Made by a program: the position numbers and the translations under genes. 64,000 nt of DNA from Bacteroidales bacterium (GTDB lineage: Bacteria > Bacteroidota > Bacteroidia > Bacteroidales > UBA12077): contig JAZBOG010000020.1 in assembly GCA_036351015.1 (NCBI GenBank), forward strand, positions 1,305 to 65,304, in the 5' to 3' direction. Positions 38-19,447 of the stretch are shown in pieces. A model generated the notes under the pieces. That model worked only from the letters and a program-made list of their open reading frames with translations. It did no database searches and was not told the origin of the DNA. The first letter of the stretch is position 1. Each line of letters opens with the position of its first letter.

Positions 38-1351
38 CTATTTACTAAAAAGGGTGGGATTAATAACCAACATCATAAATGCCCAATTGGCTAACTCATC
101 GGCATTCCCTCCTTTTATCACTTCCATGGACTTGCTGGCGAACATCATGGAGTATCCGGCATTAAGGGTAATATCGGGAGTAAATTGATACTTAAAATAA
201 AAATCAATTTCGGTACCCAGATGTTTATCCAATGCTTTTAACCCCGGTCCGGAGTAATTAGGATCTAATACATTGTTGGCCAAAGAGAGATAATGTAGTG
301 TACTCCCAATATTTATCTTTTCGTTAAGAGGATACTGAATATTCAGATAAAGATCGGATAGACCTCCATTCATGGTTTGAGAATAGGTATTGGTAAAATA
401 GTCCATATGGCCGTTAAATTTATGACCTGCACCATACAATTTATTAAATGTATTGATTTCGGTATTTGAAGTATCCAACCCATTGGTTCCGGAATAATAA
501 TCAAACCCTAAATCAATGCCCAGTTTGTTAAAATTCTTATGCCCTTTCACCGAATAAAAATAGGCATCGACCACTTTTCCTGTACTTTCTTTTCCATGCT
601 GATAATAGAAATTACCCGACAGGCTTAATTGTAGTGAAGGCATATCGTAATAAACATTAGGCCCGAAAGTATTACGTCCGTATATTGTATGATCCGTATT
701 TGCTTTCTGGTTTCCATCGAGAACATCAATAAAAGAAATTGTTAATTGGTCATTAAATTTCTTTGAAAACCACACATAAGTAAGCGTTTTATAAAAATCC
801 AGGGGATAATAGCTTTCAAAGTTCTTTTCTTTGTCATTATTGTAAGCAAATCCAACATGTGATTTAAACGTTTTGCTTTCATATTTCAGTAAAAGTAGAT
901 CATGCGAAGTACTAACATTGTTCCAGTTGGTAACAGAAAGTAAACGCTGATCATCATATTTTAAAATTTGCCGACCTATCTTCAGGTTCAACCGGGAATT
1001 CAATTCCAATTCGGCCCAGGCCTCATTTAAAAAAGTAGATGCCAGATCATTTTTGATGGTCACATCTCCCCAGGTGCGCACATCCTGTAAAGATATTTTA
1101 AAATTTATTTTCTCCATCTTCGACTCAAAAATCAAACGGGATCTTTGAGAGATTACCTGGGCTGGGGAAGAACCGGTTGAAGGTAAGGTCTTATATCCAT
1201 TACGAAACTCATACCGTGGTCGCATCTCTGCTTTAATCGAGAACTGAGATAATACTTCAGTAGTCGATAAGCCAATCATTAATACCAGTAGAATAAACTT
1301 ACTAATCTTGAAACTCATTGCAATAATTATCTGTTTGAAAGAGCTGCTCAC
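38..1351 (-). CDS. Outer-membrane beta-barrel porin, alginate-export-like (putative)
   Basis: 437-aa ORF. Signal-like MSFKISKFILLVLMIGLSTTEVLSQ, so the true start may be Met12 near 1318. Y/F/G/N-rich alternating beta-strand pattern and an RPRYEFRNG motif typical of alginate-export-type barrels. Confidence 0.5.
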   Translation of the reverse strand: MSSSFKQIIIAMSFKISKFILLVLMIGLSTTEVLSQFSIKAEMRPRYEFRNGYKTLPSTGSSPAQVISQRSRLIFESKMEKINFKISLQDVRTWGDVTIKNDLASTFLNEAWAELELNSRLNLKIGRQILKYDDQRLLSVTNWNNVSTSHDLLLLKYESKTFKSHVGFAYNNDKEKNFESYYPLDFYKTLTYVWFSKKFNDQLTISFIDVLDGNQKANTDHTIYGRNTFGPNVYYDMPSLQLSLSGNFYYQHGKESTGKVVDAYFYSVKGHKNFNKLGIDLGFDYYSGTNGLDTSNTEINTFNKLYGAGHKFNGHMDYFTNTYSQTMNGGLSDLYLNIQYPLNEKINIGSTLHYLSLANNVLDPNYSGPGLKALDKHLGTEIDFYFKYQFTPDITLNAGYSMMFASKSMEVIKGGNADELANWAFMMLVINPTLFSK

Positions 1352-1453: not shown

Positions 1454-1984
1454 TTATTTTTCCTTCTTTTTTGTTTTTTTATCCATCGCCGATTTTCCTT
1501 CGGTCGTTTTTTCCTGTAAAGAAACAATCTCGTCCGACGAAAAAACTTTCTCCATATCCAGCAGCATGATAAACTTCTCGTCAACTTTTACCATTCCGTA
1601 AATAAATTCCGACTTATATTTACTGCCAATACTTGGTGGAGGTTGGATCTGGCTATCGTCAATTTCAAGTACTGCCTGAACCGAATCGACTAAAGCACCT
1701 ACCTGGACCATGTCATGATCCAGTTCAACTTCCATCACAACAATACAGGTGTTGTTGGTATATTCGGTGGGAGTCATTCCAAATTTAATCCGGGTATCAA
1801 TAACCGGCAAAACCGTACCCCGTAAATTAATTACTCCTTTCATATACGCGGGAGCCTTAGGAACCTCCGTAATTTTTGTCATCTCGAGGATATTCAGTAC
1901 TTTGCCCACATGGGCTGCAAATTCTTCGTCGCCCAACTTGAATGACAAATAAGAGTTAATCTTTGTTAATTCTTCTTTTTCCAT
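1454..1984 (-). CDS. cheW: Chemotaxis coupling protein CheW
   Basis: 176 aa. Typical CheW core (YLSFKLGDEEFA...VPKAPAYMKGVINLRGTVLPVIDTRIKFG). Lies 6 nt downstream of cheA. Confidence 0.85.
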   Translation of the reverse strand: MEKEELTKINSYLSFKLGDEEFAAHVGKVLNILEMTKITEVPKAPAYMKGVINLRGTVLPVIDTRIKFGMTPTEYTNNTCIVVMEVELDHDMVQVGALVDSVQAVLEIDDSQIQPPPSIGSKYKSEFIYGMVKVDEKFIMLLDMEKVFSSDEIVSLQEKTTEGKSAMDKKTKKKEK

Positions 1985-1990
1985 GATTCT

Positions 1991-4054
1991 TTAATTTTTT
2001 TGTTTTTTTTCTTCTGTAATTTCTTTTGAGAATTGTGCTATGATCTTATTCGGGTCCATTACCAAAGCTACGGTACCATCCCCTAATATAGTAGCTCCGG
2101 AGATAATCTCCTGTTGTTTGTATAATTTGCCCAATGATTTTAATACCGCCTGATATTCACCGACCACATCATCCACAACCAGCCCTATTTTCTGATCCGA
2201 GTAGCTAACCACAATAACCTGTTCAATGGATTGAGTTCCTTCCGGGAAATCAAACTCTTCCCGCAAATAATAGAAAGGAATTTGTTTGCCATCTAAAATG
2301 ATCATATTGTTAAAGGTGTTTACAACCTTTTGATGCTCGGTAGCGTAGATTTTGTCAACGGCATTTAACGGAATGATATAATGATTTTCAGCTATTTTTA
2401 CCAACAAACCATCAATGATGGAAAGTGTAAGTGGGAGTTTTATGGTAAGGGTAGTCCCTACATTAATCTCAGAGTCAATTTCTACCTCACCACGGATCTC
2501 GGCCAGTTTTCTCTTCACAACATCCATGCCCACTCCTCTGCCTGACACATCGGTTATATTCTGGGCGGTCGAAAATCCAGACCGAAAGGTAAGGTCCAGG
2601 ATCTCCTTTTTGGATAATACAGCATCCTTACTGATTAATCCTTTTTCTATCGCCTTCGCTCTTATTTTTGCAGGATCAATCCCAGCACCATCATCACTAA
2701 TCTGAATAATTACATTGGCTCCTGAATAAAAGGCTTTTAACAGGATTTTTCCCTGGGCCGGTTTTTTTAATTTCTTTCGTTGTTCTGCAGATTCTATTCC
2801 ATGATCAATACTGTTTCTAAGAATATGTAACAGCGGATCGGTAAGACTTTCAATAATTGTTTTATCCAGTTCTGTATCTACTCCTTCGGCACTAAAAGCA
2901 ATATCTTTATTTTGATCTTTGGACAAATCTCTGACCAAACGTTGAAACCGGGTAAGCATGGTCTCAATAGGAACTAACACAATGTCAAAGGCATTGTCGC
3001 GTAATTGTCTGGAAAGCTTCTGAACATTTTCTGCTATGGTCATCAATTCAGAGTCGCCTGTTTGCTCGGCATATAAACTTAACCGTGCCTGGGTGGTCAC
3101 CAGCTCGCTCACCAGGTTCATCATTCTGTCGAGTTTCCCCGAGGAAACCCTGATGCTTGAAATAGCATTTTCCTTTACAGAAGGTAGTGGACCCGTCTTT
3201 TTTATTTTCTTCTCGATCTCACTTAAATCACTGGATGAGTCTCCCTTTTTATCTTTTATCAACCTTTGAATCTCGGATAATCCAATATCATCTTTTGATG
3301 CTGCAATTTTGGCTAATTCCTGAACGATCGTTTCATGTGTTAAAATATTAAAATCGGCAACCTCGTTTATCTCCAGCTCACACTGATCCTCAACAAAAAT
3401 GAAGACATCGTTAATGTCATTTAGATGATTCTCGGTGGCAAGCAGTATCTCCCAATACGTATAACATTTAGTGACATCCAGGGTATCAATCGCAGGAATT
3501 TTATTCAGATGGGAAAATACTTTACAATCCCCTAACGAATGCAACTCATCTAAAAGGAATAAGGGGTTAGTGCCATCATTGAAGATATCCGGATCAGGAG
3601 CAAAATAAATATAATACGTTTTCAAACGGGATTCGGTTGACTTTTCTTTTGGCCCGGAGATTCCTATATCCTCTCCCCTGTTCTCTTCAATCTTTTTTAT
3701 CTTTACAATCAGATCGTTATGTTGGGCAGTAATTGCCGGTGAGTTTGAATCTTCATTGGACAACAAAACTTTCATATGATCGACCGACTGAAGGGTAATA
3801 TCCAATAAATCCCGGGTCACACTCAGCTTATCCTCCCGTACCAGGTCGTATACATTTTCAAGATGATGCGTAAAATCACTCAACTGCTGAAAGCCAAACA
3901 TGGCCCCCCCTCCTTTAATGGTATGCATAGCCCGAAAAACCCTCTCGACCAACTCCCTGTTGTTCGGTTCGTTTTCGAGAATTAACAGGGCATCCTCCAG
4001 ATCTTTAATATTATCTGTAGCTTCTTCTATAAATTTAGCAGTAAACTTATCCAT
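1991..4054 (-). CDS. cheA: Chemotaxis histidine kinase CheA
   Basis: 687 aa. HPt motif RAMHTIKGGGAMFGF, HATPase boxes (HILRNSIDHG, DDGAGID, GRGVGMDVV) and a C-terminal CheW-like P5 domain. 1-nt overlap with cheY. Confidence 0.9.
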   Translation of the reverse strand: MDKFTAKFIEEATDNIKDLEDALLILENEPNNRELVERVFRAMHTIKGGGAMFGFQQLSDFTHHLENVYDLVREDKLSVTRDLLDITLQSVDHMKVLLSNEDSNSPAITAQHNDLIVKIKKIEENRGEDIGISGPKEKSTESRLKTYYIYFAPDPDIFNDGTNPLFLLDELHSLGDCKVFSHLNKIPAIDTLDVTKCYTYWEILLATENHLNDINDVFIFVEDQCELEINEVADFNILTHETIVQELAKIAASKDDIGLSEIQRLIKDKKGDSSSDLSEIEKKIKKTGPLPSVKENAISSIRVSSGKLDRMMNLVSELVTTQARLSLYAEQTGDSELMTIAENVQKLSRQLRDNAFDIVLVPIETMLTRFQRLVRDLSKDQNKDIAFSAEGVDTELDKTIIESLTDPLLHILRNSIDHGIESAEQRKKLKKPAQGKILLKAFYSGANVIIQISDDGAGIDPAKIRAKAIEKGLISKDAVLSKKEILDLTFRSGFSTAQNITDVSGRGVGMDVVKRKLAEIRGEVEIDSEINVGTTLTIKLPLTLSIIDGLLVKIAENHYIIPLNAVDKIYATEHQKVVNTFNNMIILDGKQIPFYYLREEFDFPEGTQSIEQVIVVSYSDQKIGLVVDDVVGEYQAVLKSLGKLYKQQEIISGATILGDGTVALVMDPNKIIAQFSKEITEEKKQKN

Positions 4055-4437: not shown

Positions 4438-4743
4438 TTAGGCCTTAAATATTTTACGGATATCAGAATTTTCAAGTAACGCCTGGATTTCATCATTAAA
4501 TTCGGCAGTAAAAACAATCCTCTTTCCTCTCGCTTTAGCACTCTGACTCAATGAATAAAGAAATTGGATAAACGATAAATCCAGGTTGTTCACATTTTTT
4601 AATGTAAAATCAATTTCCTGATTTGCATTAAATGTTTGAATGATTTTATCTTTGATTTCTTCGATAGTATATATTGTTAGATCATGGTCTAATAATATAT
4701 TTACTTTTTTCACTCCTTTGGATTTTGCTTTTTTGATTTGCAT
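4438..4743 (-). CDS. STAS-domain (anti-sigma-factor-antagonist-like) protein
   Basis: 101 aa with SpoIIAA-like size and layout (LDLSFIQFLYSL...GKRIVF). The canonical DSSG phospho-serine motif is not visible; IQFLYS sits in its place. Confidence 0.55.
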   Translation of the reverse strand: MQIKKAKSKGVKKVNILLDHDLTIYTIEEIKDKIIQTFNANQEIDFTLKNVNNLDLSFIQFLYSLSQSAKARGKRIVFTAEFNDEIQALLENSDIRKIFKA

Positions 4744-4766: not shown

Positions 4767-6578
4767 TCAGAAAAATTCAATATCACCATCTTCTTCAAGA
4801 TCTATTTCAATATTCTCTGCTTTGTCCCGGAGAATCTGATCATGGACCTGGTGCTCTGAATGCATGGTGTAATAATCTTTTAACTTTTTTAAATTTTCTT
4901 CTTTAGATAATTCAGAATTCTGATCATCTGTTTTTAATTTGAAATTAATCGTATTTAATTCCGTAATGATCTCTTCAATTACTTTCTCGAAAAATTTATA
5001 ATATTTTATGTCAGCAATTGCTTTTTTAATGATCCCAATAACTTCCCTGCTTACCTGTTGATTGACTTTCAGCTTTTTATCAATGGAGTCTCCGGACTCT
5101 TTGATTTGATTTACAAAGCCATCAAATTGGTTAATATATTCCCGGGTTAATCGGTTCTGATGGTTATGCTCATTAGATTCCTGAAAATTTTTTTTTATTC
5201 GTTTTAATTCATGAAAGATTTTATACACTTTCTGATAGTTATTCTTAATGTCGGAATGTAAATTCTTTACCTGTGCAATATTTTTTTTCGAATTCAAATC
5301 ATCAACCGAAAGCTCCTGTAATCTTTCCAGGGTATTAAAAAACAGCTGGTTAAAATCCTCACTCAGCAGGTCCAATTTACGAAATGACGAATCAATAGTA
5401 TCTATCTTATCTTCCAGGGAATCAATATCCTGGTTAATCGTTTTGTTTTGGATAAATTTCTGGTCAAGAATCTCGTTCGCTGAAGAAAATAAATGAAAAA
5501 TATCATCATAAAGTTTTAATCCATTCTCATCGTATAAAATCTCATTTCCTTTTTCGGAAATGTATTTCATATGATCGCCAATATTTAAAAACTGGTTAAT
5601 AATAATCTCCAGGGCACCCTGGTATTCCTTATTGGCATGAATCAGCTGCGCAGCTTGCAATCCGGCAATATCGCGGATACGAAGAAAACATTTTGCCAGA
5701 TCGTTGAGATGGCTCTCATCTTTATGGGTTTCCTCAAAGGCTTTCAGTTCTTCTATTAAATCACGATGGGTTTGCTGGATATGTTCCATCTTTTGTTGAA
5801 TAATATCCTGATATTGTAATTTTTTAATAATATCATCCACACTAAGTGTAGTCTTTTCAGAGCTTTCAATTATTCCGGGAATCAACCTCTTGTTTCTCTT
5901 ATACTTATCTTTTAAGGCATTCAACACGTGCTCAATTTTTGATAACCATAAATCAAAATTGAATTCTTTTTGTTGTTTTATATCCTGCAAATTCTTTATT
6001 GAAAGTTTGGATACTTTTTGAAGATGATTAATATTTTTAACAATAAGATCAGAATATTTTTTGATTTCATCGATTTTTTGACTAGCCATTTGATTCTGTT
6101 GTTCAATCACCACCTTATCAGTCCCTTTAATGTGTGAAATGTTGAGGTTTAAATTAGCAAGCAAATACTTTAAACTCATTAAATTCTGGCAATAATTTTT
6201 CATAGGAAAAAAAATATGCCGTAAATGATTGGAAAGTTTATCAAACGAATCAATGACAATTTCTAATTTATAATCAAAAAGCTCAATCCGGGCTTTGAGG
6301 CTATGGTACAATTGTTCAACCTGGCAATAAAACTCCTGGCTGTTATTATCATTAAAGTGATTAAGGACAGTATGGATATTTTCGGCAATGATTTTTGATT
6401 TTGTGTATATGATCTTAAATTCACTATTTAATTTTAAAAAATCATCCGCCGAACATTCATGCAACGAAATCAGGTTTTTATCAATACTGGAAAACAGGGT
6501 AGAAATTTCTTCTACAGAAAATGTGTTGAGTAAAGCTTTTAACTGTATTTTATTTTCGAGTTCTTTATCGTAATCCAT
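4767..6578 (-). CDS. 603-aa coiled-coil protein of unknown function in the Che-like operon
   Basis: Long uninterrupted ORF, 12 nt downstream of a receiver gene and 23 nt upstream of the STAS gene. K/E/N/I/L-rich heptad-like sequence with no TM segment. No MCP signature (NLLALNAAIEAARAGE) seen. Acidic tail ends in DIEFF. Confidence 0.6.
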   Translation of the reverse strand: MDYDKELENKIQLKALLNTFSVEEISTLFSSIDKNLISLHECSADDFLKLNSEFKIIYTKSKIIAENIHTVLNHFNDNNSQEFYCQVEQLYHSLKARIELFDYKLEIVIDSFDKLSNHLRHIFFPMKNYCQNLMSLKYLLANLNLNISHIKGTDKVVIEQQNQMASQKIDEIKKYSDLIVKNINHLQKVSKLSIKNLQDIKQQKEFNFDLWLSKIEHVLNALKDKYKRNKRLIPGIIESSEKTTLSVDDIIKKLQYQDIIQQKMEHIQQTHRDLIEELKAFEETHKDESHLNDLAKCFLRIRDIAGLQAAQLIHANKEYQGALEIIINQFLNIGDHMKYISEKGNEILYDENGLKLYDDIFHLFSSANEILDQKFIQNKTINQDIDSLEDKIDTIDSSFRKLDLLSEDFNQLFFNTLERLQELSVDDLNSKKNIAQVKNLHSDIKNNYQKVYKIFHELKRIKKNFQESNEHNHQNRLTREYINQFDGFVNQIKESGDSIDKKLKVNQQVSREVIGIIKKAIADIKYYKFFEKVIEEIITELNTINFKLKTDDQNSELSKEENLKKLKDYYTMHSEHQVHDQILRDKAENIEIDLEEDGDIEFF

Positions 6579-6590
6579 GGAGCAAAATCT

Positions 6591-6968
6591 TTATTTATGG
6601 GTAGCTAATACCTGGTATACTTTGGCTAAAAAGTCTGGAATATTAATCGGTTTCTCAATAACATCAGCAGCCCCGAGGTCCTTTGCTATAATAATATTTT
6701 CTTTATTAGCAAATGCTGTTACTATAATGGTGGGAATACAATTCAATTCGTTCGTTACTTTTAACTTCCGCAATAAATCAAATCCATTTTCATTAGGCAT
6801 TAACAGGTCTAATAAAATTAAATCGGGAGTATATGATTTTAACTTCTTCTCTGCTTCCTTTACATTAAAAGCTGTTTCAACATGAAACCCATCATCTTCC
6901 AAAATTGCTTCAAGCAGAACCAAATTGGTTTCAGAGTCATCAACAATTAAAATATTATGTTTTGCCAT
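6591..6968 (-). CDS. Single-domain response regulator (receiver only)
   Basis: 125 aa with IVDDSE, LLDLLMPNENG, VTA, EKP receiver motifs. First gene of the Che-like operon. Confidence 0.85.
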   Translation of the reverse strand: MAKHNILIVDDSETNLVLLEAILEDDGFHVETAFNVKEAEKKLKSYTPDLILLDLLMPNENGFDLLRKLKVTNELNCIPTIIVTAFANKENIIIAKDLGAADVIEKPINIPDFLAKVYQVLATHK

Positions 6969-7197: not shown

Positions 7198-7884
7198 ATG
7201 AGCAAAGACAAAAAAGGGGATTTATTCGATTTATTATTTCCCGATAAGGATATCATATCAAAAGCTGAGATTGATCGAATCAGAGCAGGTTGTGAAATCG
7301 TTCAATTCCAGAAAAAGGATATCATTTTTAAACAAAACACCCTCACCTCGCATATCATGTTTATTAAATCGGGATTGGTAAAAATTTTTAAGCAAGGGAA
7401 AAATAATAAATCAATCATTCTCAAAATTGCCACACCAGGTAACTTTTTGGGGTTAATTTCAATTTTTGGGGAATCAACTTTTCAATATTCGGCCTCAGCC
7501 ATTGAAGATGCAGAAATTTTATTTATTGATTTCAATACTTTTCAATCAATCTTAACCAACAATGGAAAATATACGACCTCGTTGTTAAAAAAATTAAGTA
7601 AGGAAAATCTTTATGTGATCGACCGATTAATTGCTCAGTACCACAAACAACTCCCAGGAAAAATTGCCGATCTAATCCTCTATTTTTCCGAGGAGATCTA
7701 TCATTCTGAAAAATTTGAGTTACCCCTTACCCGGAACGAACTGGCTGAATTTGCCGGGACAACCAAAGAAAGTCTTATTAGAACTTTAACTGAGTTTAAA
7801 AACGATAAAATTATCGAGCTGGAAGGGAAAAAAGTGAATATAAGGAGTATGGATATTATTAAAACACTAAGCAGAATAGGGTAA
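7198..7884 (+). CDS. Crp/Fnr-family transcriptional regulator
   Basis: 228 aa. N-terminal cNMP-binding beta-roll (FKQNTLTSHIMFIKSGLVKIF...PGNFLGL) and C-terminal HTH (LTRNELAEFAGTTKESLIRTLTEF). Confidence 0.85.
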   Translation: MSKDKKGDLFDLLFPDKDIISKAEIDRIRAGCEIVQFQKKDIIFKQNTLTSHIMFIKSGLVKIFKQGKNNKSIILKIATPGNFLGLISIFGESTFQYSASAIEDAEILFIDFNTFQSILTNNGKYTTSLLKKLSKENLYVIDRLIAQYHKQLPGKIADLILYFSEEIYHSEKFELPLTRNELAEFAGTTKESLIRTLTEFKNDKIIELEGKKVNIRSMDIIKTLSRIG

Positions 7885-7886
7885 TA

Positions 7887-8261
7887 ATGACTAAGTATAA
7901 CATTCTAATTGTTGATGATATTTTTTTAAACAGATTATTATTAAAAGAATTTTTAAAAAATATCGCAGAGAAACTTATTGAGGCAGAAAACGGAAAAGAT
8001 GCCATTGAAATCATTAAAAACAATCCGGTCGACGTTGTCTTAATGGACATTGAGATGCCTGTCATGAATGGGCTAGAAACCACAAAGTTTATTCGAAATA
8101 ATTTTCCCGAGCCCAGTAACAGGATCCCTATAATTGCGCTAACAGCTCATAATCCGGATGACTTTTTTAATGATTTTAACAGTGCTGGTTTTGATGAGTT
8201 ACTTACCAAACCCTATTCCTTTGAAAAGGTGTTAGGGGCCATAAAAAAAGCAAGATCGTAA
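7887..8261 (+). CDS. Single-domain response regulator
   Basis: 124 aa with IVDD, VLMDIEMPVMNG, LTA, TKP motifs. Starts 2 nt after the Crp-family gene. Confidence 0.85.
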   Translation: MTKYNILIVDDIFLNRLLLKEFLKNIAEKLIEAENGKDAIEIIKNNPVDVVLMDIEMPVMNGLETTKFIRNNFPEPSNRIPIIALTAHNPDDFFNDFNSAGFDELLTKPYSFEKVLGAIKKARS

Positions 8262-8288: not shown

Positions 8289-10892
8289 ATGAAGAAATTA
8301 AACACGTTTCAGCATTTATTTTGGGTTCTGGTTTGTTTTTCTCTATTGTTCATTTCCTGCGATAAAACCCCTCCAAGGTATATTGAACCTGGTGTTAGCT
8401 TTGATTTAGCCCGGTTAAGAAATGATCAACTCAAGAATATAAAATATGAGCTAACCTTTTTAGTCCCGGATTCATTAAACCAACCTATTACAGGCAGGGT
8501 AACCCTCCAGTTTGATTTTAATAAAAGTACTGATCTCCCCTTAATCCTGGATTTCAGAAACGAACCTGCTCAGATCCAATCGGTAAAAAAAGAGAATAAA
8601 AAAATAAGCTATCGTTTCCGTAATGAACATATCATTATTCCGGAAAGGTACCTTGAAAGTGGAGTTAATCAGATCGAGATTGAATTTATTGCAGGCGAAA
8701 GAGCATTAAACCGTAATGATGAATATTTATACACGTTATTTGTACCCGACAGGGCCTGTACTGCATTTCCCTGTTTCGACCAGCCGTCGTTAAAAGCCAT
8801 TTTTAAACCCACCATAACTGTACCCCGGGAATGGAAAGTGGTTGCAAACTCCCCCCTGCTTAACATAAAGGTTAAGGAGAGTAATCAATCCTACTTTTTT
8901 ACTGAAACAGAACCAATCAGCACATACCTTTTTGCATTTGTTGCAGGACAGTTCAATACCATTACCAAGAAAGAGGGAAAACGTGAAATTACCTTATACC
9001 ATCGGGAAAACGATTCAGAAAAGATAAATCGAAATATTGACCAGATCTTCGAACTAAAATTTGAATCCTTAGCCTGGCTGGAGGAATATACCCAAATCGG
9101 CTATCCTTTTCAAAAACTTGATTTTATTGCCATCCCTTCTTTTCAATATTCCGGAATGGAACATCCGGGTGCAGTATTATATCGCGACACCAAGCTCTTT
9201 CTGGACGAATCGGCCTCCATTCGTGATGAACTAAGCCGTGCAAATTTAATTGCTCACGAAACAGCACATATGTGGTTTGGCGACCTAGTTACAATGGAAT
9301 GGTTTAGTGAAGTTTGGCTAAAAGAAGTGTTTGCCAACTTTATGGCCGATAAAATTGTAAATCCTCACTTTCCTGCAATCAATCATAACCTCAACTTTCT
9401 GATCAATCATTATCCATCTACATACGCGATTGATCGAACCAAAGGGGCTAACCCCATAAGCCAGAAACTGGATAACATGAAAAATGCCGGAACAATATAT
9501 GGCCCTATCATTTATCATAAAGCACCGATTATGATGTGGCACCTTGAGGATATCATTGGCCGGGAGATGTTAAAATCTGCAGTACGTCAATACCTTAACA
9601 ATTACCAATATCAAAATGCTACCTGGGATAACCTGGTGCAAATCATCGACCAGGAATCAACCATAAATATTAAGGAATGGAGCAATGTTTGGGTTTATCA
9701 GTCAGGTATGCCTCATTATATCACACAAAAAGCGTTTAACCCTGATCAAGAATTGCAGAATATAATTCTTGAACAACAAGATCCACAAGGAAAAGGACGA
9801 CAATGGGTTCAAAATCTAAAAACTGTAGTCGTCAGCGACCATCATACCAATTATTATTCGATTCAGACCAAAGACACTTTTAATATTGTAAATTTAAAAA
9901 AGCCCATAGCCAGGAACGATTATATTTATACCAATGCTTCAGGATATGGTTATGGTTACTTTAAGCCGGACCAGGAATCTATACGCTTTTTCCTCAATAA
10001 GATAACCTCCATTACCGACGAAGTATTGCGATGTACGTTATATATGAGTTTGTGGGAAAATATGCTTTTTGAACAAATCGCCCCCAAAGAACTACTGCAG
10101 TGTTATCTTAAGGCCTTACCTGCAGAAAATAACCCACAAAACATTAATCTGTTGCTTGACTATGTTGAGACCATATTCTGGAAATTTCTAACTCCTGAGG
10201 ATCAACAAAACACAGGCTCCATCCTGGAAAAAATTCTATGGGATGAACTGGAGAAAGCCAGGTTTGAAAAAACACAATTAAATATTTTCAAAACCTACAC
10301 AGGTATTGCCTTAAACAATACGGCAATAGAAAATCTTCTGGCCGTGTTTCGCCAGGAAAAGAAACTGAATAAGCTCCATCTTTCTACCCGCGACTATACA
10401 GACTTAGCTTTTGAATTATCTCTTCGGGGGATTGCCCATGCAGAAGAAATTCTTGACACCCAGTACCAACGAATAGACAACAAAGAAAGAAAAGCAAGAT
10501 TTAACTTCATTCGTCAGGCTCTTTCACAGGATGAAAAACTACGCGACCAGTTTTTTTATTCCTTGCTGGATGAAAAAAACAGAGAGAAAGAACCCTGGGT
10601 AGTGAGTGCCGTCTACTATTTAAATCATCCCCTCCGGAGTCAGTCAGCAATTAAATACATCCGGCCTTCCCTCGAGGAATTAGAAGAGTTGCAAATCACC
10701 GGAGATATCTTTTTTCCTGCACAATGGCTTAATGCAACCTTTTCCGGTCATTCCTCAATTAAAGCGGTTATCGAAATCAATCTCTTTTTAAACGAAAACC
10801 CGGATTACCCGGAAAATCTTAAAAATAAAATCCTGCAATCCACGGATATGGTATTTCGTGCAAACAAAATAAAAAATAAAACCGGATTTTAG
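8289..10892 (+). CDS. M1-family zinc aminopeptidase (aminopeptidase N-like), secreted or lipoprotein
   Basis: 867 aa. HEXXH-18-E zinc site (HETAHMWFGD...WLKEVFANF), exopeptidase motif variant SGMEHP, and a signal/lipobox-like N-terminus (LLFISCDK). Confidence 0.85.
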   Translation: MKKLNTFQHLFWVLVCFSLLFISCDKTPPRYIEPGVSFDLARLRNDQLKNIKYELTFLVPDSLNQPITGRVTLQFDFNKSTDLPLILDFRNEPAQIQSVKKENKKISYRFRNEHIIIPERYLESGVNQIEIEFIAGERALNRNDEYLYTLFVPDRACTAFPCFDQPSLKAIFKPTITVPREWKVVANSPLLNIKVKESNQSYFFTETEPISTYLFAFVAGQFNTITKKEGKREITLYHRENDSEKINRNIDQIFELKFESLAWLEEYTQIGYPFQKLDFIAIPSFQYSGMEHPGAVLYRDTKLFLDESASIRDELSRANLIAHETAHMWFGDLVTMEWFSEVWLKEVFANFMADKIVNPHFPAINHNLNFLINHYPSTYAIDRTKGANPISQKLDNMKNAGTIYGPIIYHKAPIMMWHLEDIIGREMLKSAVRQYLNNYQYQNATWDNLVQIIDQESTINIKEWSNVWVYQSGMPHYITQKAFNPDQELQNIILEQQDPQGKGRQWVQNLKTVVVSDHHTNYYSIQTKDTFNIVNLKKPIARNDYIYTNASGYGYGYFKPDQESIRFFLNKITSITDEVLRCTLYMSLWENMLFEQIAPKELLQCYLKALPAENNPQNINLLLDYVETIFWKFLTPEDQQNTGSILEKILWDELEKARFEKTQLNIFKTYTGIALNNTAIENLLAVFRQEKKLNKLHLSTRDYTDLAFELSLRGIAHAEEILDTQYQRIDNKERKARFNFIRQALSQDEKLRDQFFYSLLDEKNREKEPWVVSAVYYLNHPLRSQSAIKYIRPSLEELEELQITGDIFFPAQWLNATFSGHSSIKAVIEINLFLNENPDYPENLKNKILQSTDMVFRANKIKNKTGF

Positions 10893-13898: not shown

Positions 13899-16800
13899 TT
13901 AAAAAGCTTGATCAAAATCTTGGTCAAATTTCTTGACCAGATAATCACATCCGTATTTAAAAAGTTTATTCATATTATCTTTTATTGTATAGCTAAAACT
14001 ATATTTCTCGGATTGATTGGTTGAGGGTAATAGTTCAAAAATTTCCTTCCGGATATCATCGATGGTTTTATCTATTTCTCCACCGGTAAATTTAGCCATT
14101 AAATGGATCAACTGAACATAATTTTCTTGTTCCACCTTCCCTTTAAATTGTTTTTCGAATTGCTGAATATGTTTTTGTGTATTGGTAAAACTACCTGAGG
14201 TTTCAACAGGGAAAGTAGCCGGTAGAATTAAGTCAGCCTGTTTAGCTGTTTCGGTCATAAAATAATCCTGCACCATGATAAATTCGGCATCGGCAAACCA
14301 TTTCTGGATTTTAGCTTTGTCCCTGGCACAGCCTATCGGATCTTCACCGAAGATATAGAACTTTTTAATTAATCCCTCATCGAGTAAATCCTTGGTGCAT
14401 TTCTCGTGGATTTCAGGTAAACTCTTAATCTTCCAGTTTTTCGACAATTTCTTAGCAAATTTCTCATCTTTTAAATCTGTATAACCAACCCCGTTTTTGG
14501 AAGAAATTCCCATATCAAATAATCCCTGTGCATTATTTTTCTCCTTAAGAGAGATAAGTCCACTGGATGTTTTGCCTAGTTTGCCCGTGATCATGGCTAG
14601 GTTAAACAACTCTTTGCTAACATTAGCCGATATATATTTCTCTGAAAAAACAATAATTCCATTCATCTCCCGGTTATAATTCTCGGCAAATTCTTCCAGG
14701 TGTTCCTGGCAACATATACCCGAAGCAGATACTAATTTTTGATAGTCTTCGTTCAACAATTCTTTCTTATATTGTTCAAATCCTATACAACGGTCCTTGA
14801 TAAACAATGAATTTTGTAATCCCCTACTAACCAGGTAGTAATTAACAGCCTTGATAAAATGATAATAGGATTTAATTTTCATAATTTTATCAACCTTATG
14901 CTCCAAAGCACTTTCTTTTCTGTCGGTAATTAGTTCTACAGGTACTTTATCGGTCTCCCGGGTATTATTTACCATAAACCCAACAACAGCATTATCCCTG
15001 TTTATTTCAGAGCCAAGCAGGTATATTTTACCTGCCTTTTTCAGTTGATCGAAAGGAACATTTGCTTTAAAATTAGATTCATAGCCTCTACCCTGACCTA
15101 AATAATAGAAACTGGTTACATTGTTGGTTTTGGCATTCGCCCGAGCCAGCTTTTGAATCAAATACATCTCTTCATTACTTAATCTAGCGCCTGCAAAGAA
15201 TCCATTCTCATCAGCATCTGCCCCTTTAATTTCGTCGGCAATCACATCAAAAGCTTTTTCCCAGCTGATGGTCTCAAAATTATCATCTACCTTAAGCAAG
15301 GGCTGGGTAATTCTTTGCAAATCATTCATAGCAGTATATCCAAATTTAGGATAACGGCAGATATTACCATCTTTATTTACCAGACCTTCTTTCCCGGTAG
15401 CTTTCCAAACAAATTCCGATTTATGATGATACTTTACTTCACATCCTACCGAACAATAATTACAAAGGGTATTCACAGAATCCAGTTTTACAGGTCCGGG
15501 TTTAAAGGAAGTATTTTCTGTAATGGCTCCGGTTGGACAGGTAGAAATGCACAGTCCACAGGACTCACACCGTGTATCCACCAACGATCCTCCCATACTT
15601 GGCGCAACATAAGTATCAAACCCCCGATTAACGAGACCTAATGCATTTGCACCTACTACTTCGTCACATATTCTGACACAACGGGCACATAAAATACATT
15701 TATTGTTGTCAATTTCAATAAAAGGGTGTGAAAAGTCAATAGAATATTCCTGAAATTCACCACTAAACCGCTTTTGTTCAGCATGATATTGTGAACTATA
15801 CTTTTTCAGATCGCAGGTAAAAAACTCGTTACAACCACATTCCAAACAACGATTAGTTTCATGCTGGGCAACATTCTCGTCAGCATAGCCTAATTCCACT
15901 TCTTCGAAATTATTCCGTCTGTCGGCAGGTAAAACAGGCATCTCTTCACGCAACTGCTGTTGATATCTGCCTAAAAAATCATCTGGGGAAAGTTCTTTAA
16001 AATTATCTTTTCTGCTTATAAATTCTTCAGCTTCAGGCTCTATGGGCAACCCTGACAAATACTGATGGCAACTTCTACTGGCAATCTTAGCCTGAGCAAT
16101 AGCTTCAATGATAGTTGCAGGTCCGGTTACGCCATCACCGGCAGCAAAAACAGAGGCAATTCCGGTTTGCAGAGTCTGTTCATTTGCAGCAATATCTCCC
16201 CAACGGTTCACTTCCAGTTTGCCTTTGTCCGAAAATTTATTGATATCATCTAAAAAATTAACGGTTGTTTTTTGGCCTATCGCTGCCAGCACGTAGTCCA
16301 ATTCAATTTCAAACTCAGAGCCTTCAATGGGAATTGGCCTCCTGCGCCCAGAGGCATCGGGCTCGCCCAGCTCCATTTTAACACAGGTCATGGTTTTTAA
16401 TTTCCCGTTTTTATCTTTATTAATCTTTACCGGGTTGGTTAAAAACAAATATTCTACCCCTTCAACTTTTGATTCATGGATTTCAATGGGGTTCGCCGGC
16501 ATCTCTTTTTCGGTTCTACGGTAAATAATGTATACTTTTTCTGCGCCACAACGAACAGAAGTCCGGCAGCAGTCCATGGCGGTATTTCCACCCCCCACAA
16601 CAGCAACCGTTTTTCCCGAAAAATCATATTTCTGACCGGTCATTTCCATGTTCCGCAAAAAGTCGATTCCTGAAAACACATTTTCAGCGTCATCACCCTC
16701 ACATCCAATTAATGTTCCCCGTTGTGAACCTATGGTTAAAATTACGGAATCGTATTTCTTTTTAAGCTCCCGGTAGCTTAAATTATCCCCCAATTTTTTC

Positions 16801-17603
16801 TGATAAAAAATATTGACTCCCAGTTCAGTAACTGCTGCTACTTCCTGGTCCAGTATATCATTGGGAAGACGGTATTCAGGGATTCCATAGCGTAACCAAC
16901 CACCCGGATTCGGACTGGCTTCGTAAATATCACACTGATGTCCCTTTTGTTGCAGGAAGTAGGCTGATGATAATCCCCCGGGACCGGCTCCAATGATGGC
17001 TATTTTTTTACCGGTAGAGGTTTCAATATCCGGAACATACCGCGCTTCGGAAAGTAAATCCTTATCCGCGGCAAACCGCTTCAAATAATCAATACCAACG
17101 CCACTACCCTCATCCAGGAAGTTTCTTCGACAGGCCAGTTCACAGGGGCGAACGCACACACGCCCACAAATTGCCGGTAATGGATTGGTTTGTTTTATAA
17201 GTCCTATAGCTTCACTATATAAACCTTTTTCTATAAACGAAATATATCCCTGTACATCTACACCAGCCGGACAGGTTTGCTTACAAGGAGCTTCACAATC
17301 GGCATAGTGATTACTTACCAATAGATCTAATGCTGTTTTACGAGCTTTTTGAACCTTCTCATTTTCTGTTTCTATACGCATTCCCTCTTGTATCTTCGTA
17401 GAGCATGAAGGTTGCATTCCTTTCATCCCTTCCACTTCGACAACACAAACAAAACACGATGAAAAAGGCTGAAGCCTGGGATCATTACAAAGGGTTGGGA
17501 TTTTAATTTCATGTCGGTTGGCTAATTCGAGAATTGTTTCGCCGGGATTGCCTTTAACATTTTTCCCGTTTAGGATGATATTGAGTTGATTACTTTTTTT
17601 CAT
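13899..17603 (-). CDS. Multidomain Fe-S flavoprotein: NuoG/HydA-type [2Fe-2S] + inserted GltD/NfnB-like FAD/NAD(P)H module + NuoG-type Fe-S clusters + cofactor-less molybdopterin-oxidoreductase-like domain
   Basis: 1234 aa. C39/C50/C53/C67 form the 2Fe-2S site. CEAPCKQTCP and CGRVCVRPCELAC are the GltD N-terminal clusters. GAGPGG and VVGGGNTAMD are dinucleotide folds. HETNRCLECGCNEFFTCDLK is a His-Cys3 cluster like NuoG N5. CILCARCVRIC and CESCGLCISTCP are 2x[4Fe-4S]. CNYCSVGC is the molybdopterin-type 4Fe-4S. SNEEMYLIQKLAR and ADLILPATFPVETSGSFTN are molybdopterin-domain motifs. Confidence 0.85.
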   Translation of the reverse strand: MKKSNQLNIILNGKNVKGNPGETILELANRHEIKIPTLCNDPRLQPFSSCFVCVVEVEGMKGMQPSCSTKIQEGMRIETENEKVQKARKTALDLLVSNHYADCEAPCKQTCPAGVDVQGYISFIEKGLYSEAIGLIKQTNPLPAICGRVCVRPCELACRRNFLDEGSGVGIDYLKRFAADKDLLSEARYVPDIETSTGKKIAIIGAGPGGLSSAYFLQQKGHQCDIYEASPNPGGWLRYGIPEYRLPNDILDQEVAAVTELGVNIFYQKKLGDNLSYRELKKKYDSVILTIGSQRGTLIGCEGDDAENVFSGIDFLRNMEMTGQKYDFSGKTVAVVGGGNTAMDCCRTSVRCGAEKVYIIYRRTEKEMPANPIEIHESKVEGVEYLFLTNPVKINKDKNGKLKTMTCVKMELGEPDASGRRRPIPIEGSEFEIELDYVLAAIGQKTTVNFLDDINKFSDKGKLEVNRWGDIAANEQTLQTGIASVFAAGDGVTGPATIIEAIAQAKIASRSCHQYLSGLPIEPEAEEFISRKDNFKELSPDDFLGRYQQQLREEMPVLPADRRNNFEEVELGYADENVAQHETNRCLECGCNEFFTCDLKKYSSQYHAEQKRFSGEFQEYSIDFSHPFIEIDNNKCILCARCVRICDEVVGANALGLVNRGFDTYVAPSMGGSLVDTRCESCGLCISTCPTGAITENTSFKPGPVKLDSVNTLCNYCSVGCEVKYHHKSEFVWKATGKEGLVNKDGNICRYPKFGYTAMNDLQRITQPLLKVDDNFETISWEKAFDVIADEIKGADADENGFFAGARLSNEEMYLIQKLARANAKTNNVTSFYYLGQGRGYESNFKANVPFDQLKKAGKIYLLGSEINRDNAVVGFMVNNTRETDKVPVELITDRKESALEHKVDKIMKIKSYYHFIKAVNYYLVSRGLQNSLFIKDRCIGFEQYKKELLNEDYQKLVSASGICCQEHLEEFAENYNREMNGIIVFSEKYISANVSKELFNLAMITGKLGKTSSGLISLKEKNNAQGLFDMGISSKNGVGYTDLKDEKFAKKLSKNWKIKSLPEIHEKCTKDLLDEGLIKKFYIFGEDPIGCARDKAKIQKWFADAEFIMVQDYFMTETAKQADLILPATFPVETSGSFTNTQKHIQQFEKQFKGKVEQENYVQLIHLMAKFTGGEIDKTIDDIRKEIFELLPSTNQSEKYSFSYTIKDNMNKLFKYGCDYLVKKFDQDFDQAF

Positions 17604-17668: not shown

Positions 17669-19447
17669 TTAGGATAAAACAATGGCATCAAATTTACATT
17701 TCGAATAACACATTCCGCATTTTATACAAGCCTCCTGCCGGATAAAATGTACTTCTTTTCTTGCTCCATCAATTGCATCTGACGGGCAATTTTTGGCACA
17801 TACAGTACAACCGGTACATTTTTCAGGATCAACGGTGTACGTAAGTAGTTTTTTACAATTTAATGCAGGGCATTTTTTATCCTTGATATGGGCTTCATAC
17901 TCATGGCGGAAATACTTAATGGTAGTTAATACCGGATTTGGCGCTGTTTGTCCCAAACCACACAATGAATTGTCTTTAATTTGATAAGCAAGTTCTTCCA
18001 GTTTTTCGATGTCTCCTTCCTCACCTTCACCTTCGGTGATGCGGGTAAGTATTTCGAGCATTCGTTTGGTTCCGATGCGGCAGAATGTACATTTTCCACA
18101 CGATTCTTTCCGGGTAAAATCAAGAAAGAAACGAGCCATATCGACCATACAGGTGGTTTCATCCATCACCACCATCCCCCCGGATCCCATAATTGCGCCG
18201 GTAGCATTCACCGAATCATAATCAACAATGGTATCGGCAAGGTACTCAGGGATACAGCCTCCGGAAGGGCCACCCAGTTGAACCGCTTTAAATTTCTTGT
18301 CCCCGGTAATGCCGCCTCCTAATTTAAAAATAATATCATGGATTGAAATTCCCATAGGGACCTCAACAGCTCCTCCGTGTTTAATTTTCCCGGTAAGTGC
18401 AAAAACTTTGGTTCCTTTACTTTTTTCTGTACCATACCGGGAAAAGGATTGGGCCCCGTTTAAAATGATGTAAGGGATATTGGCAAAAGTTTCCACATTA
18501 TTAATGTTTGAAGGTTTACCCCATAATCCTGCTTCGGCAGGAAAAGGAGGTCGTTTCCTGGGCATCCCGCGTTCCCCTTCCACAGAGGCAATCAATGCTG
18601 TTTCTTCACCACAGACAAAGGCTCCTGCACCTTCTTTCACATACAGATCAAAATGAAAACCTTTCATTCCCAGAATATTTTTACCAAGATAGCCTTTCTC
18701 CCTTGCCTGCCCAAGAGCTATATTAAGCCTTTTAATCGCCAGGGGATATTCAGCCCGGCAATAGATTACACCTTCTGTGGCACCAATGGCATACCCCCCA
18801 ATAATTAATCCTTCAATTACAGCATGCGGATCACCCTCCAACAATGAACGGTCCATAAAAGCACCGGGATCTCCTTCGTCGGCATTACAGATGATATATT
18901 TTTCGTCGGATTGGTTTTTATAGGCAAACCTCCATTTTAACCCTGTGGGGAAACCACCTCCTCCACGGCCCCGGATTCCTGAATCTAAAACCGTTTGAAT
19001 TACCTGTTCCTGATCGATTTTTTCTGCAACTATTTTTTTAATTCCTTTATATCCATCATTCTTTTCGTATTCATCGATACTTTCAGGATTGATTATTCCA
19101 CAATGACGAAGGGCTATTTTTACCTGTCCATCCCAAAAGGTGTCGTCCGGGGATTTAAACAGATCGCTTTTAACCACGTAATCCTTAATCGGTTCGCTCT
19201 GTTTGAGATGTTTATCAAAAATCTCAACCGCTTTCTCTTCATTAATGTCTCCATATAAATAGGACCCGGTATCATCAACCACCTCCACTAATGGTTCCCG
19301 GTAACACATGCCAATACAACCGGTTTTTTTCAATTCAAAATCAAGTTGATCTGCATGCTTTAAAGCGATGAGTTTATCGTAAACTTTTTGAGCACCTGCA
19401 GAAATTCCACAGCTTGCCAATCCAACCAAAACTTTTGTTTTTTCCAT
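17669..19447 (-). CDS. NuoF/HydB-type NADH-binding FMN Fe-S subunit
   Basis: 592 aa. N-terminal thioredoxin-like 2Fe-2S domain, GRGGGGFPTGLKW (FMN), CNADEGDPGAF, ESCGKCTFCRIG (N3-type cluster) and a C-terminal 2x[4Fe-4S] ferredoxin (CTGCTVCAKNCP, CIKCGMCYSKC). Confidence 0.9.
   Translation of the reverse strand: MEKTKVLVGLASCGISAGAQKVYDKLIALKHADQLDFELKKTGCIGMCYREPLVEVVDDTGSYLYGDINEEKAVEIFDKHLKQSEPIKDYVVKSDLFKSPDDTFWDGQVKIALRHCGIINPESIDEYEKNDGYKGIKKIVAEKIDQEQVIQTVLDSGIRGRGGGGFPTGLKWRFAYKNQSDEKYIICNADEGDPGAFMDRSLLEGDPHAVIEGLIIGGYAIGATEGVIYCRAEYPLAIKRLNIALGQAREKGYLGKNILGMKGFHFDLYVKEGAGAFVCGEETALIASVEGERGMPRKRPPFPAEAGLWGKPSNINNVETFANIPYIILNGAQSFSRYGTEKSKGTKVFALTGKIKHGGAVEVPMGISIHDIIFKLGGGITGDKKFKAVQLGGPSGGCIPEYLADTIVDYDSVNATGAIMGSGGMVVMDETTCMVDMARFFLDFTRKESCGKCTFCRIGTKRMLEILTRITEGEGEEGDIEKLEELAYQIKDNSLCGLGQTAPNPVLTTIKYFRHEYEAHIKDKKCPALNCKKLLTYTVDPEKCTGCTVCAKNCPSDAIDGARKEVHFIRQEACIKCGMCYSKCKFDAIVLS

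Follow-up and report, generated by a model that had tools for sequence, protein, structure and literature searches.

What does a 603-residue protein without a recognizable domain do in the middle of a chemosensory (Che) operon? The question is raised by the window analysed here, a stretch of 64,000 nucleotides (nt) from a Bacteroidales bacterium (GenBank assembly GCA_036351015.1, contig JAZBOG010000020.1 of 65.4 kb), in which an open reading frame (ORF) at positions 4767 to 6578 of the minus strand is followed by genes for a STAS-domain protein, a CheY-like response regulator (RR), CheA and CheW. A preliminary description, made from the letters of the window, had regarded the product as an orphan that occupies the receptor slot of the operon, perhaps an extremely divergent cytoplasmic receptor or a new type of scaffold for CheA/CheW arrays. 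According to our analyses, the ORF belongs to a family, termed here fam600, which is a fixed accessory component of the Che pathway and is found almost entirely in Bacteroidales. The protein is predicted to form a single long helical hairpin, with an invariant D-x-x-x-Q stripe on one arm and with a C-terminal tail that resembles the tether of the receptors encoded in the same clusters. Our preferred, albeit tentative, reading is that fam600 serves the Bacteroidales Che pathway as a tethered DxxxQ phosphatase or adaptor.

Architecture of the protein and its invariant stripe

The ORF starts with ATG, and the boundaries and strand given for it in the preliminary description are correct; ORF calling, homology and AlphaFold2 (AF2) modelling support its product as a real, soluble, all-helical protein. 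The description had also noted a sequence rich in K, E, I, L and N and the lack of transmembrane segments, both of which agree with the computed values (a K/I/L/E/N/D-rich composition and a maximal 19-residue Kyte-Doolittle mean of 0.78). The annotation libraries are silent about this protein: no Pfam family matches it at E<=0.01, NCBIfam yields no match above noise, and direct sequence comparison with the PDB chains leaves it unmatched. Neither CheZ nor MCPsignal, the signalling domain found in methyl-accepting chemotaxis proteins (MCPs), is among the Pfam matches at E<=10, a comparison that covered the window protein itself and, for 32 members, the 25 families matched most often. Two short palindromes within the ORF, at 5543-5562 and 5609-5622, have a terminator-like score on both strands; they sit in the codons of a conserved block of the C-terminal arm and are probably incidental.

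AF2 modelling of the full-length protein with 113 sequences yielded an all-helical structure with a predicted local distance difference test score (pLDDT) of 79.5, in which helices span residues 22-74, 77-149, 153-203, 208-283, 288-348, 356-423, 428-470, 479-522 and 526-547, and residues 550-562 and 585-603 are disordered. A rerun for residues 151-427 gave four helices with a pLDDT of 88.5 and a turn at residues 284-287. The features discussed below are, in the order of the protein chain:

6414..6485, minus strand: conserved block where the hairpin opens, on the N-terminal arm, residues 32-55, IDxxxxSLHxCSxDDFLxLNxxFK (S43, D46 and F47 conserved in 97-100%)
5727..6521, minus strand: N-terminal arm (N-arm), residues ~20-284, with the AF2 helices 22-74, 77-149, 153-203 and 208-283
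5766..5831, minus strand: the most conserved block, IIKKLQYQDIIQQKMEHIQQTH, residues 250-271, with DxxxQ preceded by [YF]-[QH]
5688..5753, minus strand: hairpin tip, residues 276-297, with the AF2 turn at 284-287, variable and with indels
5589..5687, minus strand: partner block on the opposite arm, residues 298-330, FLRIRDIAGLQAAQLIHANKEYQxAxExIxxxF
4920..5714, minus strand: C-terminal arm (C-arm), residues ~289-553, running antiparallel against the N-arm with a register of i+j ~573-575
4935..5027, minus strand: conserved block where the hairpin opens, on the C-arm, residues 518-548, ..IKYYxxFExxIEEIIxELNxIN..L, which mirrors block 32-55 (Y526 and Y527 100%)
4836..4883, minus strand: motif YYTMxxEHxxHD, residues 566-581, in a low-confidence segment (Y570 and T571 100%)
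4770..4826, minus strand: disordered acidic linker and invariant tail DKAENIEIDLEEDGDIEFF, residues 585-603

The topology of the hairpin was judged by two indirect tests, namely the conservation of alignment columns in 225 diverse members (with mutual identity at or below about 50-90%; all conservation counts in this work refer to these sequences) and Foldseek searches with the sub-model. Per-column conservation is mirror-symmetric around a centre at residue ~287; the correlation has one narrow maximum (Pearson r=0.82 over 263 residue pairs, at i+j=573-575), and the symmetry persists without the centre (r=0.72) and for residues 16-150 alone (r=0.68). The conserved blocks are paired across the arms: 32-55 with 518-541, 121-142 with 431-452, and 248-271 with 302-325. 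In Foldseek, the sub-model fits best on two-stranded antiparallel coiled-coil arms (Smc 5xg2, root-mean-square deviation (rmsd) 12 Å over 266 columns; 5nnv, 11-13 Å; the MukB elbow, 17 Å; Smc5/6, 15-18 Å), and poorly on compact bundles (BAR, F-BAR and SH3BP5, 30-48 Å); its highest TM-score (TMq = 0.40) is to the MCP model 9a69_B. The matches of the sub-model belong to the same coiled-coil class as those of the full model, which finds generic coiled coils only (TMq<=0.29), and they are informative for the overall shape only. As the centre of the mirror-symmetric conservation coincides with the AF2 turn at 284-287, we conclude that fam600 is a single long antiparallel helical hairpin, whose arms of ~265 residues are in register throughout. 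The extended hairpin with a tip in the middle of the sequence, proposed in the preliminary description, is thus supported by the conservation pattern, the model and the structural matches alike.

The full-length model is closer to the folded cohesin elbow (rmsd 30-32 Å) than to the Smc5/6 holocomplex or Rad50 (91-124 Å), and loops occur at equal height in both arms, at residues 150-152 and 424-427. These two features of the model suggest that the hairpin may be able to fold at an elbow formed by the paired loops. The possibility that the arms arose by internal duplication was considered and rejected, as hhalign comparisons among the four quarters of the protein reached at most 39% probability, a value typical of coiled coils. 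Mean-field direct coupling analysis of the 225 sequences (Meff 184) was dominated by artefacts of indels and misalignment and provided no usable couplings.

The invariant stripe, which had been missed in the preliminary description, lies in the most conserved block of the N-arm. Q255, D258, I259 and Q262 are 100% invariant, K263 and H266 are conserved in 98% and 99% of the sequences, Y or F fills position 256, and position 257 is Q in 127/225 (56%) or H in 93/225 (41%), which together give the pattern [YF]-[QH]-D-I-I-x-Q-K-x-x-H. The heptad core of this helix consists of positions 260, 264, 267, 271, 274 and 278; D258, Q262 and H266 would therefore fall on one exposed stripe, with D258 at heptad position b and Q262 at f. 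The partner block of the C-arm (residues 298-330, with Q308, L312, N316, Y319, Q320, A322 and I326 conserved in at least 97%) faces the DxxxQ block at equal height. Since the conserved faces of both arms are level, they form one conserved patch, 26-40 residues away from the tip. The partner block is the region that the preliminary description had considered the nearest thing to an MCP tip, and the segment IRDIAGLQAAQLIHANKEYQGA quoted there was indeed found at residues 301-322.

The family and its place in the Che clusters

The label "orphan" has to be abandoned. In a database clustered at 90%, 304 homologues of the 603-residue protein were found at E<=1e-3; 113 of the 120 listed are at least 580 residues long (the whole range is 339-618), and those among them that carry a name are all "hypothetical" proteins from metagenome-assembled genomes (MAGs) of Bacteroidales, Bacteroidota or Marinilabiliales. 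A profile of the core (residues 228-345) matches at least 782 representative clusters at 50% identity, of which 283 score at E<=1e-10 and ~500 fall between 1e-10 and 1e-3, and the best 150 of the 782 are all ordinary fam600 members of ~600 residues. Relatives are encoded in 248 GTDB species genomes, nearly all of them Bacteroidales MAGs. One copy, 68% identical and set in the full Bacteroidales-type synteny, comes from a contig labelled "Thiohalospira sp.", a gammaproteobacterium (L009, JBKHIH010000004.1); this contig is likely to have been mis-binned in its MAG. In the literature on the Che components of Bacteroidales we did not find a description of fam600 or of its cluster, and as far as the searched libraries and literature show, the family is undescribed.

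In the window, the gene is part of an operon on the minus strand, in which the gaps between genes are 1-23 nt as far as CheW:

6591..6968, minus strand: single-domain RR just upstream of the ORF, with a gap of 12 nt (D12, D13, D57, T87 and K109 intact)
4767..6578, minus strand: the 603-residue ORF with an ATG start, member of fam600
4438..4743, minus strand: STAS-domain protein 23 nt downstream of the ORF, in a CheS-like position (assigned by domain match, synteny and PMC12654446)
4054..4419, minus strand: CheY-like RR whose acceptor pocket is complete and which has W in place of the Y106 of CheY
1991..4054, minus strand: CheA, with Hpt, H-kinase_dim, HATPase_c and CheW domains
1454..1984, minus strand: CheW
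38..1351, minus strand: porin-like gene

The phospho-acceptor pockets of all three neighbouring receivers are intact. A survey of synteny by tblastn over 80 fetched loci, together with four annotated contigs, revealed a fixed gene order in 63 of the 80 loci: RR, fam600, STAS, CheY-like RR, CheA, CheW, none to two canonical MCPs, CheR, a small histidine kinase, CheD and CheB. In some related loci the STAS gene is replaced by a gap of its size (~450 nt). The upstream RR adjoins the fam600 gene in 61/80 loci (with gaps of 13-200 nt, as measured from the ends of tblastn matches), and CheA is found downstream in 57/80. Co-occurrence with cheA and cheW, by which the preliminary description had proposed to check its assignment, is thus borne out in 57 and 53 of the 80 loci, respectively. 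Canonical Cache-HAMP-MCPsignal receptors and/or a porin stand between CheW and CheR in related clusters; among the 39 clusters that reach CheR, 18 have an MCP gene in this interval and 21 have none. CheC, CheX and CheZ are absent from the Pfam matches of the called genes in the four annotated related clusters, of which three contain CheD and the fourth (L004) ends within cheR. The window, which begins just past the porin gene, contains no MCP, CheR or CheD. Identity to relatives is 45% for fam600 as compared to 72-82% for CheA, CheW and CheY, which indicates faster evolution of the former.

The order fam600-STAS-CheY-CheA-(CheW)-CheR parallels that of an alpha-proteobacterial cluster, in which the chemoreceptor gene atu0514 precedes, by locus number, cheS (atu0515), the gene of a STAS protein (PMC12654446). 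The parallel favours the remark on the "receptor slot", as the gene does stand upstream of STAS-CheY-CheA-CheW; however, the likeness is positional only, and in related clusters the canonical MCPs are encoded after CheW.

Several other features of these loci deserve mention. The porin-like gene (Alginate_exp or DcaP family), predicted to encode an outer-membrane protein, recurs inside the Che cluster (window 38-1351, minus strand; L003:15532-16776; L007) and, placed between cheW and cheR, is an odd partner for a cytoplasmic signalling operon. Between cheR and cheD there is a soluble HATPase_c protein of ~300 residues with a weak HisKA region (L001:18962-19876 and L003:17732-18628, outside the window), which would be a second, minimal histidine kinase within the Che cluster; the idea that it borrows a dimerization and histidine phosphotransfer (DHp) domain from fam600 was rejected because it has a weak HisKA region of its own. 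Divergently from the Che operon, the window encodes a Crp-family regulator (7198-7884, plus strand), a single-domain RR (7887-8261, plus) and an M1 aminopeptidase (8289-10892, plus), a neighbourhood kept in most related loci. Further on, a 1234-residue fusion of 2Fe-2S, Fer4, pyridine-nucleotide disulphide oxidoreductase and molybdopterin domains (13899-17603, minus) adjoins a NuoF-like subunit (17669-19447, minus), and L001 and L005 have the same pair next to their Che locus. A C10 (streptopain-like) cysteine peptidase (61594-63576, minus) combines an I69 inhibitor pro-domain with the C-terminal sorting domain of the type IX secretion system (T9SS; Por_Secre_tail); the presence of this cargo implies that the organism has such a system.

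In 17 loci (L040, L042, L043, L046, L047, L049, L050, L055, L056, L063, L065, L067, L068, L070, L073, L077 and L079), the fam600 gene is not part of the cheA operon and instead follows genes for DUF4199 and GT2 proteins. Those records of this subgroup whose title gives a source are Bacteroidales MAGs from rumen, gut or faeces. All 17 retain QYHDIIRQK, and 16 retain both the motif and the tail: 15 end in ..DDNDVEFF or a close variant and L050 in ..DDDDVEFF, while the contig of L068 stops before the C-terminus. A cheW-apbE pair is found near the fam600 gene in five of these loci. A conserved link to gliding genes was considered for the subgroup and rejected, as GldF/GldG-like neighbours occur in only one of the 17.

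These loci bear on an alternative in which fam600 would be an output protein or adaptor, i.e. a coiled-coil effector that is bound by the phosphorylated upstream RR and links the Che pathway to a non-flagellar target such as gliding or T9SS, or the cell envelope. The receiver-plus-coiled-coil proteins FrzS and AglZ of Myxococcus would be its precedent, and fam600 with its RR a split version of them. The receiver gene directly upstream in 61/80 loci (only 12 nt away in the window), the T9SS cargo encoded in the window together with no flagellar gene among those window ORFs that were scanned (a part of the window), and the rumen subgroup, which keeps protein, motif and tail beside DUF4199 and GT2, are all in line with this possibility, as is the rapid evolution of fam600, often seen in adaptors. 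However, neither homology nor a conserved neighbour names the target, the GldF/GldG-like genes being confined to a single subgroup locus, and such a role would account neither for the MCP-like tail nor for the invariant stripe of polar residues. We therefore consider an output role of this kind unlikely.

The C-terminal tail and the receptor question

In MCPs, the pentapeptide tether follows a flexible linker and has the consensus x-[FWYH]-x-x-[FWYH]-COOH. The flexible C-terminal segment of fam600 comprises ~50 residues overall, with a variable acidic linker ahead of a tail that conforms to [DGN][DNE][ILV]-E-[FL]-F-COOH (E601 99%, F603 100%). The acidic end of the window protein, ...EEDGDIEFF, is encoded at 4770-4796 (DIEFF at 4770-4784), where the preliminary description had placed it, and the likeness to the MCP tether that had been suggested there proves stronger than could be known from the window: the MCPs of related clusters (those with MCP genes after cheW, from loci L007-L031, L036, L044, L053 and L084) nearly all end in ..G[IF]DLKMYDxKxxDD[ED][YF]-E-[KNSQ]-[FY]-COOH, e.g. 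..DDEYEKF. Both kinds of tails share an acidic run, a hydrophobic residue at position -4, an invariant Glu at -3 and an aromatic C-terminus; they differ at position -4, which is I, L or V rather than aromatic in fam600 and [YF] in the cluster MCPs. Judged by its residues, the fam600 tail is closer to the tether of these receptors than to the CheZ peptide. The MCP tails themselves consist of a classical aromatic pentapeptide tether and an extra conserved motif upstream, DLKMYD. In the clade where fam600 ends in ..LELF the MCP tails end in Tyr, and in the ..IEFF clade mostly in Phe.

The tail brings us to the possibility that fam600 is a divergent soluble chemoreceptor, or a pseudo-receptor scaffold, whose hairpin, as a dimer, would enter CheA/CheW arrays or seed them via the near-tip patch and whose tail would recruit CheR/CheB. 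The mirror-symmetric conservation resembles that of MCP cytoplasmic domains, the sub-model reaches its highest TM-score with an MCP model, and the flexible linker with its φ-E-φ-F tail recalls the MCP ends from the same clusters. The gene lies upstream of STAS-CheY-CheA-CheW, much as atu0514 precedes cheS by locus number (PMC12654446), and 21 of the 39 complete clusters contain CheR, CheD and CheB yet lack an MCP gene. In addition, the top match of the full-length profile in the PDB is the Thermotoga maritima MCP 2ch7 (E=6e-9). This match, however, is limited to residues 355-492, and we rejected it as evidence of homology: it covers a variable coiled-coil region only and is followed in rank by designed coiled coils and myosin, from which we conclude that it is compositional. 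The core profile found nothing relevant in the PDB: it matched no MCP, and CheZ is not among the matches listed. The comparison of fam600 with MCPsignal, advocated in the preliminary description, also went against a receptor: HMMER returned no match, and an hhalign comparison with 27 signalling domains of MCPs encoded in the same clusters as fam600 gave probabilities of at most 1% and P>=0.05, with the middle of fam600 not aligned to the MCP tip.

Other features of receptors point in the same direction. The agreement with the 37-residue MCP tip signature, counted as about 7 of 37 in the preliminary description, was reproduced (7/37 at offset 289, 8/37 as the best anywhere), but it equals chance, as shuffled sequences reach 6-10 with a mode of 7. 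The tip itself (residues 276-297) is the variable part of fam600, so much so that the distance between D258 and L312 ranges from 47 to 55 residues. The methylation consensus [ASTG][ASTG]xx[EQ][EQ]xx[ASTG][ASTG] is absent from 219/225 members, the window protein included, whereas the cluster MCPs have 3-4 such sites each. The conserved Gln residues are never replaced by Glu, which argues against sites of methylation or deamidation. Heptad-symmetric indels were not seen either: those present are 1-9 residues long, confined to loops and poorly correlated between the arms (r=0.23), and the lengths of the segments are nearly fixed. Among the MCP features tested, the symmetric antiparallel hairpin is clearly present, and at position -4 the tail has an aliphatic instead of an aromatic residue. 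In view of the results for MCPsignal, tip, methylation, Gln/Glu and indels, we do not file fam600 as an MCP. Moreover, the CheA and CheW proteins are canonical (72-82% identical to those of relatives) and coexist with canonical MCPs, so that a receptor with an unrelated tip on the same binding site is unlikely. For the receptor or scaffold originally proposed, the hairpin, the cheA/cheW neighbours and the likeness of the tail speak in favour, and the lack of similarity to MCPsignal, the variable tip and the lack of a methylation consensus speak against; we regard such a role as rather unlikely.

A candidate DxxxQ phosphatase and its known counterparts

Our preferred reading, that of a tethered DxxxQ phosphatase or adaptor, starts from the invariant stripe. 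The signature of CheZ is AxxF(Y)Q-DxxxQ (PMC7750401) and that of HisKA_3 is H-DxxxQ (PMC3510030); in both families the Asp and an amide are required for the dephosphorylation of the receiver (PMC3510030). The catalytic-type [FY]-Q-D-x-x-x-Q is present in fam600, with its Asp and second Gln in every sequence, the aromatic residue at 256, and Gln at 257 in just over half of the members. The best local hhalign alignment of the full family profile with CheZ places fam600 residues 236-278 on CheZ residues 121-167, the active-site helix, with P=0.12-0.24 against a shallow CheZ profile built of enterobacterial sequences only (at least 78% identical). If the two motifs are aligned by their D and Q without gaps, the hydrophobic positions +6, +9, +13, +16 and +20 coincide, as read from the sequences.

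It is tempting to speculate how such a protein might work. The stripe from Q255 to H266 would be a DxxxQ-type aspartyl-phosphate phosphatase site, of the kind in which, in CheZ, CheT and the DHp helix of HisKA_3 kinases, the attacking water is placed by the Asp and the amide. It would act on a receiver of the operon, i.e. the RR whose gene precedes that of fam600 by 12 nt, the CheY-like RR, or CheB; we know of no dedicated phosphatase of CheB~P. The C-terminal tail may be a docking peptide that mimics the tails of the cluster MCPs and ties fam600 to CheR and/or CheB, or alternatively it may bind the receiver itself, as the C-terminal peptide of CheZ does. If the loops 150-152 and 424-427 served as an elbow, folding of the hairpin would bring the tail-bearing open end near the DxxxQ patch. 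The net role would be the termination of the signal, coupled to the adaptation machinery, in clusters whose annotated representatives show no CheC, CheX or CheZ.

A number of observations weigh against this scenario. There is no significant similarity to CheZ, neither in Pfam at E<=10 nor in hhalign (P=0.12-0.24 with the shallow enterobacterial profile), and CheZ is not found among the listed PDB profile matches or the 50 best Foldseek matches. The N-arm carries the motif, 26 residues before the turn, whereas CheZ has it on the C-terminal helix (PMC7750401), and its position 257 is not invariant. Chance alone can produce a D-x3-Q pattern in a conserved helix, and the motif was noticed before it was tested. 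In a straight hairpin the tail would leave the coiled coil ~235 residues (~350 Å) from the DxxxQ patch; a tether in cis, in the style of CheZ, would therefore need the putative elbow or an arrangement in trans. The tail is also nearer to the MCP tether than to the CheZ peptide (..DSLGF). Finally, it is a chemoreceptor gene, atu0514, that precedes cheS in the alpha-proteobacterial clusters (PMC12654446), and in 21 of the 39 clusters reaching CheR there is no MCP gene between CheW and CheR. Since homology cannot be demonstrated, the motif is on the other arm, a straight hairpin would put the tail ~350 Å from the site, and the arguments come from sequences and models, our confidence in this preferred reading is low.

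The receptor-like and the phosphatase-like features could also be combined. As a receptor mimic, and thereby a new class of chemosensory component, fam600 would use an MCP-like hairpin and tether to dock to CheR/CheB or into the array, and a DxxxQ stripe of the CheZ/CheT type to dephosphorylate a specific receiver, be it a CheY-like RR or even CheB~P. We offer this as speculation that is quite unlikely to be correct in full; if it were, a non-flagellated phylum would have a physical link between adaptation and the termination of the signal.

The same stripe admits a different chemistry, in which the exposed H266, or His257 where present, would pass a phosphoryl group among the receivers in the manner of an Hpt or a DHp domain. 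H266 is conserved in 99% of the members and shares the exposed stripe with D258 and Q262 (i, i+4, i+8), the [QH]-D-x-x-x-Q pattern is on the N-terminal helix of the hairpin ~26 residues before the turn, as in the DHp helix alpha-1 of HisKA_3 (PMC3510030), and the cluster provides at least three single-domain receivers and a second small kinase. On the other hand, Hpt, HisKA and HisKA_3 are missing from the Pfam matches at E<=10 (with the coverage given above for CheZ and MCPsignal), and the surroundings of H266 (MEHIQxTH) match neither the Hpt nor the H-box consensus. Position 257 is Gln in 56% of the members, and a weak HisKA region is already present in the small kinase itself. We consider a relay through fam600 very improbable.

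Whichever of its roles is correct, fam600 is a near-universal, unannotated part of the Che clusters of Bacteroidales, whose chemosensory pathways are essentially unstudied and whose members, to our knowledge, are devoid of flagella. Should it be a phosphatase, it would represent another independent DxxxQ family beside CheZ, CheT and HisKA_3, and would explain how the signal is terminated in systems that contain CheD and lack CheC, CheX and CheZ. As a receptor-like scaffold, fam600 would provide the first case of an array component whose tip is non-canonical. Either outcome would provide a way into what the Che systems control in the Bacteroidales of gut, rumen and sediment.

Among the known systems, MCPs (PF00015) share with fam600 the long antiparallel hairpin, the mirror-symmetric conservation and the flexible linker with a tether-like tail, as well as, in the case of atu0514 before cheS (atu0515), the position of the gene upstream of STAS-CheY-CheA. 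They differ in that fam600 has no similarity to MCPsignal, a variable tip, no methylation consensus, no heptad-symmetric indels, arms interrupted by loops, and an aliphatic instead of an aromatic residue at tail position -4. CheZ (PF04344) is likewise a helical hairpin with a flexible linker and, at the C-terminus, a short docking peptide whose last residue is Phe, exposes [FY]-Q-D-x-x-x-Q, and is encoded in che clusters beside CheY-like receivers. On the other hand, fam600 is three times longer, with arms of 265 residues, carries the motif on the N-arm with Q or H before the Asp, ends in φ-E-φ-F rather than ..DSLGF, occurs in Bacteroidales rather than Proteobacteria, and yields no significant profile match to CheZ and none among the 50 best of Foldseek.

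A further counterpart is CheT from Sinorhizobium meliloti/Agrobacterium. CheT (Agbekudzi et al. 2024, as summarised in PMC12654446) is described as a DXXXQ protein for which homology to the known Che proteins is not detectable; it has a CheZ-like predicted fold, dephosphorylates only one CheY~P and is reported to form a complex with CheR. Its cluster lacks CheZ and encodes CheD, two CheYs and the STAS protein CheS (PMC12654446). By this description, fam600 is also a DxxxQ protein of a Che cluster without homology to classical Che components. However, the gene of CheT (atu0522) lies at the end of its cluster, after cheD, and a binding of fam600 to CheR is suggested by its tail. The DHp helix alpha-1 of HisKA_3 (NarX type) resembles fam600 in having [H]-D-x-x-x-Q on the first helix of a hairpin, and 41% of fam600 members even have His before the Asp. 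In fam600, however, this His is not conserved (93/225), there is no HATPase_c domain and no Pfam match, and the hairpin is about seven times longer. Thus, hairpin proteins of the Che pathway, DxxxQ phosphatases and pentapeptide tethers are all known in kind, and what is new in fam600 is their combination, its size and the phylum in which it occurs.

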